Shown: positions 6,885 to 50,940 of the stretch, in pieces | Position numbering within the stretch: the stretch's first letter is position 1 | Layout of the letters: each line of letters starts with the position of its first letter | Assembly: GCA_964016885.1 (NCBI GenBank) | Contig: OZ024742.1 | Coordinates: 146,382,001 to 146,446,000, forward strand | DNA from: Eledone cirrhosa | Taxonomy: Eukaryota | Direction of reading: 5' to 3' | Length of the DNA: 64,000 nucleotides | Notes under the pieces: model-generated | The model's database searches: none | What the model saw: the letters and a program-made list of their open reading frames with translations, nothing else | Told to the model about the DNA's origin: nothing | Position numbers and translations under genes: made by a program

Positions 6885-7065
6885 GTTTCTACTTTAGGCA
6901 CAAGGCCAGCAATTACCCAGTGCATTACTGGTACTTTATTTTATTGACCCCGTAAGGATGAAAGGCAAAGTTAACCTCGGCAGGATTTGAACTCAGATCA
7001 TAAAGGGACGTAACTACGCTGGAAAGCATGTCTGACCTTTCTACCAATACTGCCAATTCACTGCC
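6885..7065 (-). mobile_element. SINE family A
   Basis: Reverse complement of 689-872. Confidence 0.85.
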
Positions 7066-23303: not shown

Positions 23304-24316
23304 TCATACAGTTTCACTGATTACCATAGCAGAGAGAAATCACCATCAGCTGCATGTCCAATAGAATTCTGCATGAAAACTGGAAGGAATCAAATTCTGT
23401 TAAGCTATAGAACAAAAGCAATATGTTATTGAAAAGAAGAGATGATCAGTTGTATTTTATTAAAAGATTACTGTGCTTACAATTGCAAACCACACACAGG
23501 CATGTACCATTATATATATGTATATATACATGTTCTTATATACATCATGAAACTGCAGGAGCTCAGTCGTCGAGCCATGACTCTTTCTAATATAGTTGAT
23601 CTCTACTATCCCAAGTATCGAGTACTCTGTTGAGTAATAGTCAAACTAGTTTTAAATTGGTTCTATTCTGATACATGTGTGTGTGTGCATGTGTGTGTAT
23701 ATATATATATTTTGAACACCCTGTAAGACGAAAAACAAAACCTGTTATTCGCTGAGGGCTCCTTCAACCTCCATATCGTTCTTCTCCAGGCTGGCCTATG
23801 TATATACATATATATATATATATATGTTCTTTTAATGGGGTTGTGTATGCAACAATCCAATCAGTAAATAATGATGCAATTAGATTCAAGCACTCAACAA
23901 TGTGTATCCTTTTAAATTTGATTTGGTAGTCTATAATGGAGTATACATATGATCATTTTATTTGCAAAGGTTAGATGTAGAAATTCATTACTAATTTTAT
24001 TCAGAATCCGGCATAGTACATCATTTTGTGGCATTGATGGTTATGAAGTGCAATCATCCCACAGCCACCAACATGACATAATCAGACATCATATTATGTA
24101 ATAAGGTTATGTAATATTTCCATTCCAATAAAGGGAAAAGTTGATAGATGTTGGTTCATTCACAGCATTTTTTAGTAACACTTGTTTGGAGGTGTCGAAG
24201 TAAGCTGTTGATTAAACATAAATATTCTTATATATTGCTTATTTTAAGATTTACTTCTTTAAAAAATTTCAAACGCCAATACTTACAGTTAGCATCCATT
24301 ATATCTTAACACTTAG

Positions 24317-27032: not shown

Positions 27033-27812
27033 GTGTGTAGGAAAGGCGTAGGTAGAAACTCCATTTTATGTCCTAAATGCAAAGTATGGGTGCATAAAAG
27101 ATGTAGTGGGATCACAGGTAAGCTAACTAAGAACATAGATTTTACATGTGGCCGGTGTTCTGGTGCAATAAGTAGCAGCAAGTGCCCACTAAATACTAGC
27201 TCTTTCAATTGCGCAGAGGGTTCTATAGAAATAGTGGACAGCTTCCGTTACCTGGGCGATAAAATCAGCAGTGGGGGAGGGTGCTCTGAAAGTACTGTAG
27301 CTAGAGTCAGAACTGGTTGGAAAAAGTTCAGAGAGCTTATACCACTATTAGCTGCTAAAGGGTTCTCCCTAAAAATGAAAGGCAGGTTGTACGATGCCTG
27401 CATACGAACAGCAATGCTGCATGGCAGTGAGACCTGGGCATTGTGTGCAGAGGATATACGCAGACTAGAGAGGAACGAAGCTTGCATGCTCCGCTGGATG
27501 TGTAACAGTAATATACGTGAACGGCAAAGCATAAACGAACTAAGGAAAAAATTAGAGATAAGAGGGATCAGATGTTGTTTACTCGAGAGAAGGCTACGTT
27601 GGTATGGACACGTGATGCGCATGAAAGTCAATAGCTGTATAACAAAGTGCAGGGCAATAAAGATAGACGGTAGTCACGGAATAGGCAGACCTAGAAAAAC
27701 CTGGGACGAGCTGATAAACTCCGACATCACACACTTACACCTCTCCAAGACAATGTCACTGGACCGAGACCTTTGGCGGTACTCAGTAACAGAGAAGACC
27801 CGCCTTACCTAA
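27033..27812 (+). mobile_element. RTE-clade LINE, 5'-truncated ORF with an open 259-aa C-terminal frame
   Basis: Cys-rich CxxCxxWVHxxC motif, FRYLG, KGRLYDACIRTAMLHGSETW, RRLRWYGHV, GRPRKTW. Confidence 0.92.
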
Positions 27813-28212: not shown

Positions 28213-29515
28213 GTCTTGATAAGTCTTGTGAAAGATGAAAGTGTGAGATTTAAATTATATTCTTTTATCTAAGTGATAAACAGTGTTTTATTGCTTCTGA
28301 CAATGACACTTTGTTGATATATATATATTATATATATATATAATATACATATAAATATCAAAAGTCATGAGTTTATGACATGTGCATGTTGTTCATATGG
28401 CTGGTATCATTCTGGATATGGATTTGGGCACTAAATAGTAATATAAGTATTTTTTTCCATAGATAATCATATTTTTTGTTCAGGATTCTGTATAATATAG
28501 GTGTATTGTTTGTTAATATTTTCCTACCCTTGTTTTGTAGTGTGTTGGAATTGCTCCTAGTTGCAAATGCATGGTGAGCATTAGAGTATTGTATTTGTAT
28601 GGCTAATATAACACTTGGCTTCATGAAGTTTACAACTTTCATTTTTGTAGTCAAACTTGTATTGGTCATTTGTAGCTTGTTCTTGGGTTTGAATGCTTTC
28701 AGTTTTTTGTTAATAGAAAATTGATTATGGAAAGAATACTTATATCACAATTTATTACCAAAATCAATATTGAATATGGCACTAGCCATACAAACACCAT
28801 ACACACAACAAGAACATGTGACCTGTAATGTGTGAGTCTAATGGTTAAGTTTAAGATTCAAAATTAAGTAGGAAAATTACAAAATAATGGCAAAGGAAAA
28901 ACTATAAAATGTTCATGGTAAGGTATGGACCTGTAACTTCTGAGGAAGTCATAGGGGCTCCTTAATGACATATGGTATTCCTTAGTGCATGTTCATAAAA
29001 CTTAGTGGAGCCCATCTCATCCCCAAGCCTGAGTACAGCAGATTTCTTTTCCAGAAAGGATAGAGAGTGATAGAAGTGAAGTGAGGAAGAGATATAGATG
29101 AAGACCCAACCCCGCTACTAGAATGGTATTGACCTCAAATGGATGAAAGGCAAAAGGATTTGAACTGAAAGAGCAGAGGACCGAAACAAATACCATCAAG
29201 CACTTTATATGACTTTGAGTTTCCAAAAAATTCAATAAAAGAGGCAATAAAAAAAAATCCTCAACACTCCTTAAGATGTGACTATAGGGTCTGGAGACAT
29301 TGATAATTTATGGACCTAGGAACTGTGTAGGCCATATTAGAAAATGGGAGAAGATTCTGATAAGGAAATTGAATATGGAAGTGTCTTTAATAACACTGCG
29401 TCTTGTATAAAAGAGCTATTCCCTATATATATATAAATAGTGGCATATATATATATATAGTGGGTTATATCCTCAGTAGTAGAGCACTCAGTTCATGGGA
29501 CGAGTTTGATAGAAA

Positions 29516-29654
29516 TAGTTCCACAACAGTTAGTAAACCATTTCTGAGAACAATTTGTTTTACCTTAATGGATCATCATCTTGGTTTGAGCTGATGATCC
29601 ATTAAGGTGAAACAAATTGTCATCAGAAATGATTTACTAACTGTTGTGGAACTA
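29516..29654. repeat. 63-bp-arm inverted repeat centred on a hammerhead
   Basis: Arms 29516-29578 and 29592-29654, 13-nt spacer. Confidence 0.9.
29585..29627 (+). ncRNA. Type I hammerhead ribozyme
   Basis: tttgag CTGATGA t cc-attaa-gg t GAAA caaattg TC atcaga; the other arm supplies ctcaga, which restores stem I. Confidence 0.7.
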
Positions 29655-29932
29655 CTTATATATATATGTATATGAATTGAAAGGGACAAGGCTGTGTGGT
29701 TGCTAAAAGCGAGTGTTGAGAAAGTAAAGGAAACACAAACATACAGATAGACATTTCCCCTCATCAGTTGTCTGCTGCAGGTTTCAGATGTTTAGGCACA
29801 TTAAAGACAATACCTCTATCTGCAGTGTGATAATAACTTATTTTATATATATATAGAGAGAGGGGGGGAGAAATATATATATATAGATATTTGTATATAT
29901 ATATGCATATATATGTACATACACACACAAGC

Positions 29933-31358: not shown

Positions 31359-31396
<38 letters not shown>

Positions 31397-31601
31397 CAGC
31401 TCTAGCTGTCGAAACAGCCGGAGCTCAGCCATTGGGGTCCTCACTCTTTTCATATTACCCACACTACTACCCTAAGTATTGAGTACCCTGGTCTGTTATG
31501 GTCCACCTGGGATCTTATCATAACCCCTTTGTTATATATGTATATACACACATATATATATATACGTATATACACACACACATATATATCTATCTATCTA
31601 T

Positions 31602-33870: not shown

Positions 33871-33875
<5 letters not shown>

Positions 33876-34065
33876 AACAAGTAAGACCCCGACGGCTGAG
33901 CTCAAGCCGTTTCGACGGCTAATTCAGTCCAGAATTAGCCGTCGAAACGGCTTGAGCTCAGCCGTCGGGGTCTTACTTGTTCCTATTACCCACTCTACTA
34001 CCCTAAGTATTGAGTACTTTGGTGCGTTATGGTCCACTTGGTTCCTTACCACATTTCCTTCGTTA
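33871..34065 (+). mobile_element. Penelope terminal-repeat fragment with a perfect 55-bp-arm hairpin, inserted in (TA)n
   Basis: Arms 33871-33925 and 33932-33986; matches the reverse complement of 44712-44850. Confidence 0.9.
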
Positions 34066-34079
34066 TATATATATCATTT

Positions 34080-40720: not shown

Positions 40721-40840
40721 ATAGGAACGAGTAGGACCCCGACGGCTGAGCTCAAGCCGTTTCGACGGCTAATTCTGGACAGTATTGAGTACTTTGGTGC
40801 GTTATGGTCCACCTGGTTCCTTACCACATTTCCTTCGTTA
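40721..40840. mobile_element. Penelope terminal-repeat fragment with inversion junction
   Basis: 40721-40780 is antisense terminal repeat, joined to the sense 3' end agtattgagtactttggtgcg...cgtta, within (TA)n. Confidence 0.85.
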
Positions 40841-40984
<144 letters not shown>

Positions 40985-41568: not shown

Positions 41569-41789
41569 CGGAGCAATATATATATAAAGAGGGAGAGAGT
41601 GAAAGAGACAGAAAGGGGGTAAATATATAAATATGTATAGAATACCTTGGGTGTAAGAAATAGAAATATCTTCAGATTGGAAGGTAGGTGTAGAATATTT
41701 GGTTGCAAGAACACTCCACAAGAGTTTGAAATCCCTACAGTAACTGTAGTTCTTGCTTCTGCAGATATAATCCATAACACTGACAGTAA

Positions 41790-42854
41790 TTGAACTGGCA
41801 GCAGCAGTAGCAGCACTACCACCAGCAGTAGCACTACCAGCAGCAGTTACAGCAGTAGCAGTATCAATAGCAGCGGCAGTAACAGCAGTAGCAGCAGTAG
41901 CACCACTACCAGCAGCAGTACCAGCAGTAGCAGTAACAGCAGTAGCAGTATCAATAGCAGCGGCAGTAACAGCAGTAGCAGCAGTAGCACCACTACCAGC
42001 AGTAACACCACTACCAGCAGCAGTATCAGCAGTAGCAGTATCAATAGCAGCAGCAGTAACAGCAGCAGCAGTAGCACCACTACCAGCAGCAGTAGCACCA
42101 CTACCAGCAGCAGTAGCAGCAGTAGCAGTTACAGCAGTAGCAGTATCAATAGCAGCAGCAGTAACAGCAGCAGCAGTAGCACCACTACCAGCAGCAGTAG
42201 CACCACTACCAGCAGCAGTAGCACCACTACCAGCAGCAGTAGCAGCAGTAGCAGTTACAGCAGTAGCAGTATCAATAGCAGCAGCAGTAACAGCAGTAGC
42301 AGCAGTAGCACCACTACCAGCAGTAACACCACTACCAGCAGCAGTAGCAGCAGTAGCAGTATCAATAGCAGCAGCAGTAACAGCAGCAGCAGTAGCACCA
42401 CTACCAGCAGCAGTATCAATACCAGCAGCAGTAACAGCAGCAGTAGCACTACCAGCAGCAGTAACAGCAGCAGCAGTAACAGCAGTAGCAGTAACAGCAG
42501 TAGCAGTAGCACCACTACCAGCAGCAGCAGCAGCAGCAGCAGTAGCACTACCAGCAGCAGTATCAATACCAGCAGCAGTAACAGCAGTAGCACCACTACC
42601 AGCAGCAGTAGCACTACCAGCAGCAGCAACAGCAGCAACAGCAGTCACAGGAGTAGCAGTAGCACTACCAGTAACAGCAGTAGTAGTAGCACTACCAGTG
42701 GCAGCAGCGGCACCAGTAGTAGTAGTAGTGGTGGTGGTGGTATTGATGGTGGTGGTGGTGGTGATGGTGGTGGTGGTGGTGGTGGTGGTGGTGGTGGTGG
42801 TGGTGGTGGTGGTGGTGGTGATGGTGGTATTGATGGTGGTGGTGGTGGTGGTTG

Positions 42855-42898
<44 letters not shown>

Positions 42899-43009
42899 CC
42901 ACCAGTAGTAGTAGTAGTAGTGTTGGTGGCAGTGGTAGTAGTAGTAGTAGTACCACGAGTAGTAGTAGTAGTACCACCAGCAATAGTAGTAGTAGTGTTG
43001 TTGGCAGTG

Positions 43010-43063
<54 letters not shown>

Positions 43064-43210
43064 ATACCACCAGTAGTAGTAGTAGTACCACCAGTAGTAG
43101 TAGTAGTAGTAGTATACCCAACAGCAGCAGTATGATCAGCACAGAAAATAGCTTTTAATGGTGGAGAAGAAGAAGAAGAAGAAGAAGAAGAAGAAGAAGA
43201 AGAAGAAGGA
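41790..43210. repeat. Compound trinucleotide repeat (CAG/TAG to GGT to TAG to GAA)
   Basis: Direct inspection; includes higher-order duplicated blocks. Confidence 0.95.
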
Positions 43211-44680: not shown

Positions 44681-44713
<33 letters not shown>

Positions 44714-44804
44714 CGTAATAAATGTGGTTAGGAACCAGGTGGACCATAACGCACCAAAGTACTCAATACTTAGGGTAGTAGAGTGGGTAATAGGAACAAG
44801 TAGG

Positions 44805-44900
44805 ACCCCGACGGCTGAGCTCAAGCCGTTTCGACGGCTAATTCTGGACTAAATGAAAATTTTTATCCTGGTATTTGAATAGCCGAGCTTCTCAAGGGGT
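44805..44900 (-). ncRNA. Type I hammerhead ribozyme with U3:A8 core, in the PLE terminal repeat
   Basis: Minus strand: acccc TTGAGAA g..cggcta...tagccg.c GAAA cggct-tgagctc-agccg TC ggggt. Confidence 0.75.
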
Positions 44901-45944
44901 AATTCCATATATGGTCAAAGTGATTGTCACAGGGATTGGTCAAAAGTTTGTAGATGAGACATAATAATTCTATGATGGCAATTTGTGGAGGGAAAGGGTA
45001 GCTAAACCTGCCAGTAGGAGAAAGAGGGAGAGGGGGTGGAGGAGACCCATTCATGCGTGCCGGCTACAGCTGGGCGTGAGGTCAAAGAAGATACTAGGGA
45101 GGGGGAGGGGGAGGAAGTCGAAACAGTAAGTAGAACAATACTGAGAGTGTTAAAAAGCAATTAAACGTAAAAAGAAAATAAACAATTTCTAGTTACTACG
45201 ACCTAAGTCTCTCACTATTGCTAGGCTAAAAAGATATACTAGGTGGGACGGAATTAAAATGAGACCCTTTTAAGAGGTATAAGTAATAAACCGAGTATAT
45301 CCTACGGTGACGGGTCAACAAGTGAGGGGCCAAAATACTAAAGAAACTACCACGAAATAATAAAAGTTTCTACCCCAGGCACAAGGCCAGCAACCACCCA
45401 GTGCAAAAAAGTAAACTAATACGAAATAATAATTCAGAGTCCCGAAAAAGAATACTAATACTATCTCTAAGGGTGCCGCCACGATACAAAAGTTCTAGTG
45501 CAAGCTACATAAAAGCTCGTACGAAGTAAAAGTAAAAATTAGATACGGAAAATTAATTCAGAATCCCCCCCAAAAAATAAATACTGATAAACGAGAAATT
45601 AAAGCTAAGATACCACTAAGAAATATAGAAAGCACGGAAAAGGAGCAGCGGTCGGATAAGAGGGCAAGTATCCGAGGTCTAACACATCTGCTATAAAAAG
45701 CGGATTCGGCCAAATCTATCATAGAATAGGGGAAGGGGGTGGGGGTACTGAGGCTACAAGGGACCGAGGGGCTGCCTCGGGTGGGCGAGAAAAAGACGAC
45801 GACAAAGAAAAGGAACTGGGGTGGAAGGACTAGGGAGGGATGGGGGAAGAAGGAAATATAGAGGAAGCGATAAAAAGATATAAAAGATCTTACGTCTCCC
45901 TTAGCAAGCAGGGGTTACCCATTACAAAATCGGCAAGTGGGGTG

Positions 45945-47025
45945 TTATAGCCCTAGTCTACCCCCCGGGTCATTATGGGGTTTGAGGGCGAGGTAAGTCC
46001 TACGCAATCTGTGTTTACATGCAGTAACCAGTTCATCTTTCTTGTTTAGGAGTTGGTCCGTCGAAAACAGCATTTGTAAAGTTTCCTCCGAGCATAAATT
46101 GCACGGACGGCGTCCTCCCGTGTAAGAGTTGGCTCTGGACAGTAATCTCCAAGTGAGATCATAGGTAATGTTGTTATCCTTGAGGTCCCATATGTGGCCC
46201 GAAAGTGTAGTGGCGTGACGCCGGGCCGGGTTTCGGAAGGTATGTCTGTGTTGGTATAGCCGGGTCTTGAAGTCACATGCGGTTAATCCTATATAAGATT
46301 TGTTGGATGTGTCCGTCCTCACGTTGCACTGGTAGATCACATTACGATCTCTGCATCTGTTGTCGGGGGGGGGGGGGGATGGATCCATCAGGACAGTTGC
46401 ACCTCCTGGTCGGCTCTCCACTGCTATTTAGGTTATTTCTTCCATAGGGGTTGAGTTTTTTTGTTGTTGGAGGAGACGATGTTTTGTGCAAAGTTTGGTG
46501 TAGTGCTGTAAGAGAGTTTGATGGTATTTTTGTTAATTATGTTGTGGTAGCGGTGTTGTAGTGGGAAGTGTTTTTCAATGAGCCTAAAGAATATTTTCCC
46601 GATAGGAGTTGTCACCTCGGCGTTGTGGGGAGGATTGAACCATGTTACATTGCGTGAGCGGCGGTGTCGCCTGCTGGTTCCGCTAATGGGAGCTGGACAG
46701 TAGGATATTTCCTCCCGGAAACCACACCGCTTGAGGGCCTGGTTGTAATAAGGCGCATGTTCATCGAATATCTGCTCATTAGATGACAAACAGGATATGC
46801 GGAGGGAGATGTTTTTAACCAGGTTATTGGTGATGTTTCTAGGATGGTTTGACCGGCGGTGGATGTAGTTCAGGTTGTCGTTAGGTTTCCTGTATGGGTA
46901 GTACAGGTCATTATCGAGGTCGAGGGTAACGTCCAGGCAGTTTACTCGGGTCAGGGACGTTTGTAGGGTTATTTTAAATCCCCAGTCGCGGAAGAAGCAG
47001 ATTAATTGTTTACGGACCCGATCTG
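45945..47025 (-). pseudogene. PLE ORF: RT C-terminus/thumb, linker and GIY-YIG endonuclease, frameshifted near 46380-46435
   Basis: VNCLDVTLDL, YRKPND, SNHP, WFNPP; NVIYQC...YIGLTACDFKTRLYQH...CNLCSEE. Confidence 0.92.
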
Positions 47026-47721
47026 TACTACTTCGTACGAGCTTTTATGTAGCTTGCACTAGAACTTTTGTATCGTGGCGGCACCCTTAGAGATAGTATT
47101 AGTATTCTTTTTCGGGACTCTGAATTATTATTTCGTATTAGTTTACTTTTTTGCACTGGGTGGTTGCTGGCCTTGTGCCTGGGGTAGAAACTTTTATTAT
47201 TTCGTGGTAGTTTCTTTAGTATTTTGGCCCCTCACTTGTTGACCCGTCACCGTAGGATATACTCGGTTTATTACTTATACCTCTTAAAAGGGTCTCATTT
47301 TAATTCCGTCCCACCTAGTATATCTTTTTAGCCTAGCAATAGTGAGAGACTTAGGTCGTAGTAACTAGAAATTGTTTATTTTCTTTTTACGTTTAATTGC
47401 TTTTTAACACTCTCAGTATTGTTCTACTTACTGTTTCGACTTCCTCCCCCTCCCCCTCCCTAGTATCTTCTTTGACCTCACGCCCAGCTGTAGCCGGCAC
47501 GCATGAATGGGTCTCCTCCACCCCCTCTCCCTCTTTCTCCTACTGGCAGATTTAGCTACCCCCTCCCTCCACAAATTGCTATCATAGAATTATTATGTCT
47601 CATCTACAAACTTTTGACCAATCCCTGTGACAATCACTTTGACCATATATGGAATTACCCCTTGAGAAGCTCGGCTATTCAAATACCAGGATAAAAATGT
47701 TCATTTAGTCCAGAATTAGCC

Positions 47722-47810
<89 letters not shown>

Positions 47811-50035: not shown

Positions 50036-50940
50036 TGGTAGAATCATTAGACCATTGAACAAGATGCTTTGTGGCATATAGTTACAGCTCTTTACGTTCT
50101 GAGTTCAAATGCCACTGAGGTTAGATTTGCTTTTCATCTGTACAGGGTTGATAAAATAAAGTACCAGTAACACACTAGGGTTGATTTAATCGTTTTTCCC
50201 CTCCGCTCAAATTGTTAGCTTTCTGCTTAAATTAGAAATCAGAAACCATTATTATTATTATTGGTAGAATTGTTATAGAGTCAGACAACATGCCTTGCAG
50301 CTTTTAGTTATGGCCCTTTACATTATAGGTTCAAATCCCACCTAGGTTAGCTTTGCCTCTCATCCTAACAGAAGCTATAAAATATAGTACCAGTAACACA
50401 CTGGAGTTGATTTAATTGACTTTCCCCTTCCCTCCAAATTGCTGCAATGTGCCAAAAGTAGACACAATTATTATTATTATTATTACTAGTAAACTTTGCC
50501 TTTCATCCTTACGGGGTCGATAAAATAAAGTACCAGTAATGCACTGGGTAATTGCTGGCCTTGTGCCTAAAGTAGAAACAATTATTACTAGTAGCATTAT
50601 ATCGGAGGTAGCATGGCAGACAAAATACCTTGTGGTATTTTGCTATGTCGCTTTAGAGTCTATGTTCAAATTCTGCTCATGTTGATTTTATAATTCAAAG
50701 TTGATAAAGTACCAGCCAGATAGGTGATGACTTGGCAGAGTTGTTAGAATGTAAGACAGGATATACATTGCAGTATCTTTTCTAGTACATTGTTCTCTGA
50801 GGTCAAATCCCACTGAGGTCAACTTTCCTTTTTCATCCTTTTAGGAGTTGATAGAATAAAATCCAGGGTAGCACATTGGTAGAAATATTAGAATGATGGA
50901 GGAGATACCTTACAGTATTTGTTCCAGCTCTGTTCATCCG
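50036..50940 (+). mobile_element. Cluster of successive family A-type SINEs of different ages
   Basis: At least 6 repeats of the ggtagaat...gttcaaat...gcctttcatc pattern, several following (ATT)n. Confidence 0.75.

Follow-up and report, generated by a model that had tools for sequence, protein, structure and literature searches.

Penelope-like elements (PLEs) of the Hydra clade, including Hydra-1_oBim of Octopus bimaculoides, are the closest described relatives of the element that we analyzed in Eledone cirrhosa. In the cited sections of the work that describes the clade (PMC8557442), these elements have a C-terminal GIY-YIG endonuclease, DKT and RW(R/K) motifs, a CxCX5C linker, CxxC and CxH motifs, (TA)n targets and a sense type I hammerhead near the 3' end, and we found all of these marks in the Eledone element. 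The hammerheads listed in that work all contain the core CUGANGA, a stem III of 3-4 bp closed by a loop of 1-3 nt, and a loop II of at most 10 nt, whereas the Eledone motif reads UUGANAA and contains a stem III of 5-6 bp, a loop of 7-9 nt and a 39-nt insert. The hammerhead of Hydra-1_oBim itself is a different sequence from the Eledone motif. Furthermore, the unit of the Eledone element (approximately 3.5 kb) exceeds the size described there as "generally" under 3 kb for the Hydra clade.

A core with U at position 3 and A at position 8 is not new. Prior studies have reported approximately 1,300 U3-A8 matches among PLE hammerheads in Schistosoma (Cervera and de la Pena 2014, PMC4209133) and U3-A8 cores among hammerheads in nature generally (Perreault 2011, PMC3088659), as far as the cited parts of both go. 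The Cercyon PLE hammerheads of Schistosoma mansoni (PMC4209133) share with the Eledone motif a U3-A8 core within the pseudo-LTR (pLTR), a long helix II, a short helix I, a palindromic loop 3 and copies that are mostly solo and truncated. Unlike the Eledone motif they are minimal, with little or no helix III, and the cited parts of that study do not report evidence of cleavage in vivo. A stable helix III that allows a monomer to fold is also described there for the large-helix-III hammerheads of fungi and protists; these belong to endonuclease (EN)-deficient telomeric PLEs, while the Eledone motif is predicted to have a competing, strand-swapped fold.

With regard to reverse transcription, the nearest parallel is Poseidon PAc of Anolis carolinensis (Frangieh et al. 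2024, PMC11167929), in which two internal reverse-transcription starts downstream of the hammerhead define a tail, targets are AT-rich and both strands are primed; the Eledone element appears to share these features. In contrast to the Eledone element, the PAc ribozyme overlaps the ORF start and needs protein, and the cited sections describe no RNA reads ending at the cut. The Eledone element has a longer tail (approximately 80 nt), an ATG located 190 nt past the cut, and genomic ends that pile up at the cut. In the same account, cleavage was dispensable for the Anolis PLE in vitro. Lastly, Penelope of Drosophila virilis (Schostak et al. 2008, PMC2377424, in its cited sections) has a TATA-less internal promoter within the pLTR, which the Eledone element seems to share, but its transcription starts upstream of an intron and of the hammerhead, whereas the likely start in the Eledone element lies inside stem II.

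Our data suggest, with a probability of roughly 0.7, that a U3:A8 hammerhead in the pLTR of a Hydra-clade PLE cleaves part of the element's RNA in vivo, likely only in the 3' or read-through copy. We propose more tentatively, at somewhat less than even odds, that the element's insertions are a record of both in vivo cleavage and a transcription start in stem II, and that the hammerhead is a 3'-only switch in a family that spread, and apparently kept cutting, through U·G and C·A states. Neither evidence of in vivo cleavage or a junction readout for PLE hammerheads, nor a transcription start within stem II, was found in the openly accessible literature searched. The U3:A8 core itself is ordinary, and the junction record is the part worth following.

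The hammerhead motif and its host element

The window, that is, the whole 64-kb stretch of DNA that we analyzed, contains the following features of the element family (positions are those of the window).

44805-44900 (-): type I hammerhead ribozyme motif, intact, with subfamily A sequence
44900-44896 with 44809-44805 (-): stem I
44889-44895 (-): core strand U3-U4-G5-A6-G7-A8-A9, with U3 at 44895 and A8 at 44890
44833-44888 (-): stem II region, with G10.1:C11.1 (44888:44833), a small internal loop and a helix of 6-9 bp
44885-44880 with 44840-44835 (-): 6-bp helix of stem II
44847-44852 (-): initiator-like TTAGT(C/T), with the most frequent 5' end of genomic copies at its A (44850)
44832-44830 (-): GAA core strand
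44811-44829 (-): stem III and palindromic loop, arms 44829-44824 with 44816-44811
44809-44810 (-): predicted cut between C17 (44810) and G44809, with a secondary pile of genomic 5' ends at 44809
44790 (-): near 3' insertion end, likely reverse-transcription start 1, 20 nt past the cut
44710-44789 (-): tail of approximately 80 nt
44710-45944 (-): 3' UTR and pLTR of the element
45945-47032 (-): broken 3' part of the ORF, with RT thumb, CxCX5C linker and GIY-YIG endonuclease
47029-47724 (+): inverted 5' arm, 99.3% identical to 45528-44833
33871-34066 (+): short head-to-head insertion of the same family, its sense arm starting at 33926, the equivalent of 44850
31393-31530 (+): older short copy of subfamily B, starting at the equivalent of 44850 and lacking the 5' half of the ribozyme
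40721-40845 (+): short head-to-head insertion of the same family, its inverted arm ending at the equivalent of 44849

The hammerhead motif at 44805-44900(-) is real and more than a chance match. A sequence-only reading of the window had described its parts, and we found all of them on the minus strand where they had been placed; the element context and the core letters likewise bear out its description as a type I, U3:A8 hammerhead of a Penelope-like terminal repeat. The core (N3-U-G-A-N-N8-A, GAAA, U-H and a pair between positions 3 and 8) is complete, and three helices surround it with stem I open, as in type I hammerheads. Position 3 is U or C and position 8 is A or G depending on the lineage, with U3:A8 in the window copy. 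A relaxed scan of both strands of the window (C/U at 3, G/A at 8) returned 44805-44900(-) as its single match. As had been anticipated, a standard search misses the motif: Rfam gave no hammerhead match in the window or in a 191-nt stretch, which is expected from the variant core and the insert between the 6-bp arms of stem II and lowers nothing about the mechanism. Stem II is long, as had been noted, but this insert measures 39 nt rather than approximately 35 nt. Extension of stem I past 5 bp is not conserved across subfamilies. In the minimal, dimer-type PLE hammerheads helix III is absent or limited to 1-2 bp, whereas 5-6 bp are found here; the palindromic loop 3 of that type is present in all subfamily majority lines.

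The window copy is dead, since its ORF remnant is 5'-truncated and frameshifted. Its inverted arm includes the 5' half of the hammerhead, stops at C11.1 and continues into (TC)n. Longer copies in the genome are pLTR-ORF-pLTR tandems, with a unit of approximately 3.5 kb measured between equivalent pLTR ends in one of them (L061), an ATG 190 nt past the predicted cut, and 5' pLTRs of variable length that reach hundreds of bases upstream. A single ORF with RT plus GIY-YIG at its C-terminus, partial tandems, an inverted 5' arm and a tail are the features of an EN+ PLE. Pfam scans named no family for the element's domains, so the domain calls rest on motifs and homologues, including an Argonauta protein at 38%. 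We found DKT, not DKG, in 8 of 8 aligned rows; RWR in the Eledone family and RWK or RWR in its relatives, in keeping with the RWK-type mark of Hydra; the CxCX5C linker together with CxxC and CxH around conserved E and N; and insertion into (TA)n, to which the far 3' end near 44710 is joined in 84 of 90 loci and on which 37 of 41 inverted arms end, at the near 3' end (44790). The size of the unit departs from the published description of the clade. By these marks the element is classed as a Hydra-clade EN+ Penelope-like retrotransposon. Assignments to Naiad and then to Nematis were dropped against the published Hydra diagnosis, and a non-LTR retrozyme was rejected because the copies are dispersed, mostly head-to-head half-ribozymes or ORF-bearing, rather than tandem non-coding repeats that each include a complete hammerhead.

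Two minor features of the pLTR and 5' UTR are recorded here. An upstream frame of 13 codons has its ATG approximately 105 nt past the likely transcription start (window 44746-44710(-), in full form in L061) and, in tandem copies, stops before the main ATG. A piece of the pLTR at 45405-45356(-), 40-50 nt long, resembles a dispersed repeat found in at least 9 other places in the window (for example, 50540-50587 and 6885-6924), suggesting that it may be a fragment captured from another element.

Core pair 3-8 and predicted folding

We searched the 3.0-Gb genome with the core pattern, leaving positions 3, 7 and 8 free, and found 5,402 matches compared to 0 for the reversed control. Among the first 100 matches listed, 78 were U3:A8, 20 were C3·A8, 2 were U3·G8 and none were C3:G8, while N7 was represented by all four letters. 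The whole-genome count of C3·A8 is 1,259 copies, which form a lineage. G8 is present in 49 matches genome-wide, comprising by hand count 41 U3·G8, 7 C3:G8 and 1 A3; a settled C3:G8 lineage was sought among these 49, and the 7 copies are scattered. In subfamily E, G8 was found in 12 of 14 rows among the matches listed (100 of 246). The C3 allele makes up 39-44% of contig depth in three public runs, which consist of contigs of one sample, possibly the assembly's own, and are informative only against assembly error; at this share, C3 is not an assembly error.

The majority lines of nine subfamilies, up to 36% apart, share unchanging UGA, A9, GAAA, GUC and stem I, while N7 can be any letter and loop II varies. 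In an alignment of 24 rows chosen from 40, 91% of cells pair, compared to 26-54% in slid controls. Between subfamilies, three stem II pairs have changed on both sides. Two-sided changes are confined to stem II. As stems I and III hardly vary, they lend no covariation support, and the 3-8 pair shows zero two-sided changes within the family in this alignment. The 3' half of the motif may be conserved as a promoter instead. The related fragments at 23558-23590 and 31405-31440 both lack the 5' half of the core and thus provide no test of the 3-8 pair; the first belongs to a decayed, more distant fragment at 23558-23651(+) with likeness to stem III and the tail (78% over 51 nt).

U3:A8 had been read as a compensatory change, which holds only when the family is compared with distant C3:G8 relatives; within it, no two-sided change was found, and C3·A8 and U3·G8 spread. 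Among 77 metagenome relatives (34-45% protein identity), 20 of 20 sense-strand hammerhead matches were C3:G8, mostly with a 4-bp stem III, and these matches fall in 18 loci with much redundancy. Since these relatives and the published Hydra-clade motifs are all C3:G8, U3:A8 is derived in the Eledone family. A midpoint-rooted tree of 121 of 146 distinct rows, taken together with the spread within subfamilies, suggests the order B (U:A), E (U·G), D (U:A), C0 and C (C·A), A (the window's subfamily, U:A), and F and T (U:A, approximately 2% diverged). We are unsure of the order of D versus E; subfamily B was dropped from the tree at the upstream-similarity filter, and the rows of subfamily A were chosen for their similarity to the window. 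After a departure from U3:A8, the lineage seems to have come back to this pair. Subfamily F (L214, L222, L224 and L231), among the youngest, has an extra pair beside G10.1:C11.1 and a G·U in stem III, and the tail type common to subfamilies F and A2 has the highest share of cut-site junctions.

The hammerhead is predicted to be a minority fold. Its energy (-23.1 kcal/mol) is not the lowest: a strand-swapped fold, which is possible since the arms of stems II and III are near-duplicates, reaches -24.6 kcal/mol, and the pairing probability of stem III is approximately 0.34, in a model that excludes tertiary contacts. A duplex of two strands joined through the palindromic loop has -32.1 kcal/mol compared to 2 x -7.8 kcal/mol. 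According to these predictions, the strands of stem III can also pair across two molecules or exchange partners with those of stem II. The claim that stem III is longer than is typical holds in comparison with the 3-4 bp of published Hydra-clade hammerheads, but only five of its pairs are conserved, the sixth being present in 12 of 24 aligned copies, and since the competing fold is equally stable a stable stem III is no guarantee of an active monomer.

Genomic ends at 44850 and at the predicted cut

An exact 34-mer taken from the tail occurs 22,540 times in the genome, and the commonest form of insertion is a short head-to-head pair. The near and far 3' ends lie 20 and approximately 100 nt past the cut and are likely reverse-transcription starts 1 and 2, respectively; in tandem copies, the tail between them continues as 5' UTR. 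Of the 100 loci that head the listing of tail 34-mer matches, a set unselected for the 5' end, 90 were scored for their 5' ends. A majority of these copies (51 of 90) begin at 44842-44858, with a mode of 12 copies at 44850, while 9 begin at or below 44806, 5 at 44807-44810, 14 at 44811-44841 and 4 at 44859-44899, and 7 run through. The TTAGT(C/T) at 44852-44847, which we take to be an initiator, is common to all subfamilies, whereas the loop around it has diverged, as has the pairing of that loop. Contig depth in the public runs of the single sample drops approximately fivefold between the bins flanking 44855. Directly before 44850, 10,554 copies have a letter other than T, some of them from a real C allele; among the 100 listed, this letter is G in 41, C in 49 and A in 10. 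Whether a cap contributed an additional G at 44851 was also considered, but the last letter of the partner arm largely explains the G excess, which establishes no cap signature. No common upstream exon was seen in the 44850-class junctions examined. We infer that transcription likely starts at or near 44850, inside the long stem II insert, a point that the sequence-only reading missed, in which case promoter-made RNA would likely lack half of the ribozyme.

A secondary pile lies at the predicted cut, in agreement with the earlier prediction of cleavage after 44810. Two non-template letters precede G44809 in 426 copies, and 16 of 20 inspected candidates were true junctions, giving approximately 340 copies that start at the cut. 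At the control position 44813 the corresponding values were 55 copies, 11 of 20 and approximately 30; because this single, imperfect control omits subfamily F and has two CpGs, the approximately tenfold excess at 44809 is an upper estimate. The 5 of 90 unselected copies that start at 44807-44810 form no clear peak alone, and 200 kb of random genome held too few copies for a baseline.

There are 825 short head-to-head loci in all, of which 50 were listed and counted by hand. In 22 of these 50, both arms start at G44809 or at most 2 letters from it, and a 2-nt CG overlap does not explain 17 of these 22, which often have one or two untemplated A/T letters; in another 20 the stem III palindrome forms the joint, and 8 are of other kinds. 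In 11 of 16 scored cut-site loci the partner arm also ends at the cut, compared to 0 of 45 unselected loci (the 37 cut-site loci include 6 non-junctions and 15 in which no partner arm extends to stem I, leaving 16 to be scored, with L393 read as past the cut). Arms that both end at 44809 fit a shared template end better than independent stalls. In several copies (TA)n is joined directly to G44809 without a partner arm, while 5 junctions with a long partner arm could derive from a GG overlap. In the public runs, no loose end at 44809 was seen in the 6 of 47 contig rows listed, a result that bears neither way on the cut.

Cut-site junctions are approximately threefold richer in the young U3:A8 subfamilies than in the C3·A8 lineage (odds ratio 3.1, p=0.006). 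We tried to show that such junctions are missing from the C3·A8 lineage, without success: 18 of 22 true A/C-type cut junctions carry the tail allele typical of this lineage (two non-junction rows having been removed and three rows added from the head-to-head listing), which matches the baseline of 22 of 25. Either the C3·A8 variant still cuts, or these junctions reflect trans cutting via the palindromic stem III, an unsampled U3:A8 group sharing the allele, or another cause. A broken 3-8 pair should slow cutting. Taken together, the junctions suggest that the 44809 pile likely records hammerhead cleavage in vivo.

Proposed mechanism, alternative explanations and neighboring features

We propose that RNA starting at 44850 would lack the 5' strand of stem I, the core strand and the 5' strand of stem II, and so would not cut itself at its own 5' end. 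Its 5' end would include only the 3' half of the ribozyme, and its 3' pLTR a complete one; since transcription likely starts inside stem II, the ribozyme would likely act only in the 3' or read-through copy. By analogy with the Anolis PLE, the two 3' end sites may be internal starts of reverse transcription, each serving one nicked strand. Copying primed in the 5' UTR would run off after approximately 60 and 140 nt and yield the short head-to-head insertions, while insertions of the G44809 class would be copies of the 3' cleavage product, which would hold both priming sites. Cleavage in the 3' copy would strip both priming sites from the ORF-bearing RNA, such that only uncut RNA could give long copies. 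The ribozyme might thereby act as a slow, partial brake on full-length copying or as a 3'-end former, with its activity kept partial by the competing fold and a weak 3-8 pair; a braking role of cutting in the 3' copy seems likely.

If this is true, hundreds of insertions mark cleavage to the base and tens of thousands mark the transcription start: as the element would prime reverse transcription just downstream of the ribozyme, the genome would be a fossil 5'-RACE library. Insertion junctions would then offer a cheap, genome-only readout of cleavage that could be used on any PLE with a tail. The proposal predicts RNA ends to the base: one with a cap at 44850 and one with a 5'-OH at 44809. Among the subfamilies there are also natural U:A, U·G and C·A forms of a single ribozyme, whose rates could be compared directly.

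Both piles of 5' ends could have other origins. The hammerhead may be present by descent and hardly cut in vivo, the 44809 pile arising from stalling of RT after the G run before stem III or from repair at the palindrome center. Stem III does start two letters upstream of the pile, tails of C3·A8 type carry the same 44809 junctions, the mismatched C3·A8 lineage reached 1,259 copies, and the cited sections on the Anolis PLE describe ribozyme mutants without effect on insertion in vitro (PMC11167929). We nevertheless consider this account quite improbable, because independent stalls would rarely coincide as the partner arms do (11 of 16 versus 0 of 45), the 44809 ends leave out precisely C17 and in many cases bear one or two A/T letters that are not templated, and palindrome repair cannot yield single-armed copies; moreover, no series of symmetric ends was seen elsewhere among the 50 listed loci, bar the stem III overlap class and four GTC overlaps. 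The 44850 pile, in turn, could be an RT stop atop stem II or a splice acceptor (the AG at 44850-44849 follows a pyrimidine run), with the 5' ribozyme being whole. Introns are known in PLE 5' UTRs (PMC2377424, in its cited sections), the ends of this class are spread across 44842-44858 instead of falling on one base, and the G excess, being largely the partner arm's last letter, gives the start reading no cap signature. Against these points, the modal position, the A at 44850, precedes the end of the AG, the junctions reveal no common upstream exon, and TTAGT is conserved while the loop and pairing around it change. Stops of RT at RNA structure are expected at the 3' base of a stem, which also counts against an RT stop. 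We regard this explanation as unlikely, yet as one that deserves some weight.

Other explanations concern what the ribozyme does. Tandem pLTR-ORF-pLTR copies run through the cut site, as they would if two successive hammerhead cleavages and ligation produced a unit-length circle that templates tandem copies, the model put forward by Cervera and de la Pena (PMC4209133, as far as cited here). However, the upstream ribozyme would be incomplete if transcription starts at 44850, linear tandem read-through explains the variable-length 5' pLTRs of long copies equally well, and linear 3' products appear to be copied as such; this makes a circle very unlikely. The 190 nt between cut and ATG might point to a service to translation, in which read-through RNA is trimmed to a 5'-OH and initiates cap-independently, and self-cleavage is described as promoting such translation in RNA viruses and some non-LTR elements (PMC13725137, in its cited part). 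Because a start that is likely capped is found just 41 nt upstream of the cut, we give this idea little credence as an explanation in its own right, and a role in translation would be compatible with, not exclusive of, our preferred reading. The sequence-only reading itself implied an efficient monomeric ribozyme whose Watson-Crick 3-8 pair is strictly maintained by compensatory double change. Roughly three quarters of complete copies are U3:A8 (78 of 100 listed), the lineage apparently came back to this pair and all relatives examined are C3:G8, but the C3·A8 and U3·G8 lineages spread (the C3 allele alone reaching 39-44% of contig depth), the competing fold is equally stable and most templates are uncut. 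AT-biased mutation alone, we reason, could drive the returns to U:A, and strict maintenance of the pair therefore appears improbable. Our preferred reading remains partial cleavage, likely only in the 3' or read-through copy.

Beyond the element family, an open frame at 27033-27812(+) of the window has a PHD-finger match at its start (E 2.5e-05) and probably represents a host-gene exon; an intron of this gene may hold the element in antisense orientation. At 29511-29657 there is a long, near-perfect inverted repeat that has a chance score against a microRNA model and is perhaps a MITE or fold-back. The tract at 41770-43200, a GC-richer, trinucleotide-based repeat with long open frames on both strands, looks like an expanded microsatellite, not a gene. 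Lastly, the marine metagenome contig L488 contains two canonical hammerheads on its minus strand (at 32 and 313), 281 nt apart and antisense to a Hydra-like ORF, in a retrozyme-like tandem.
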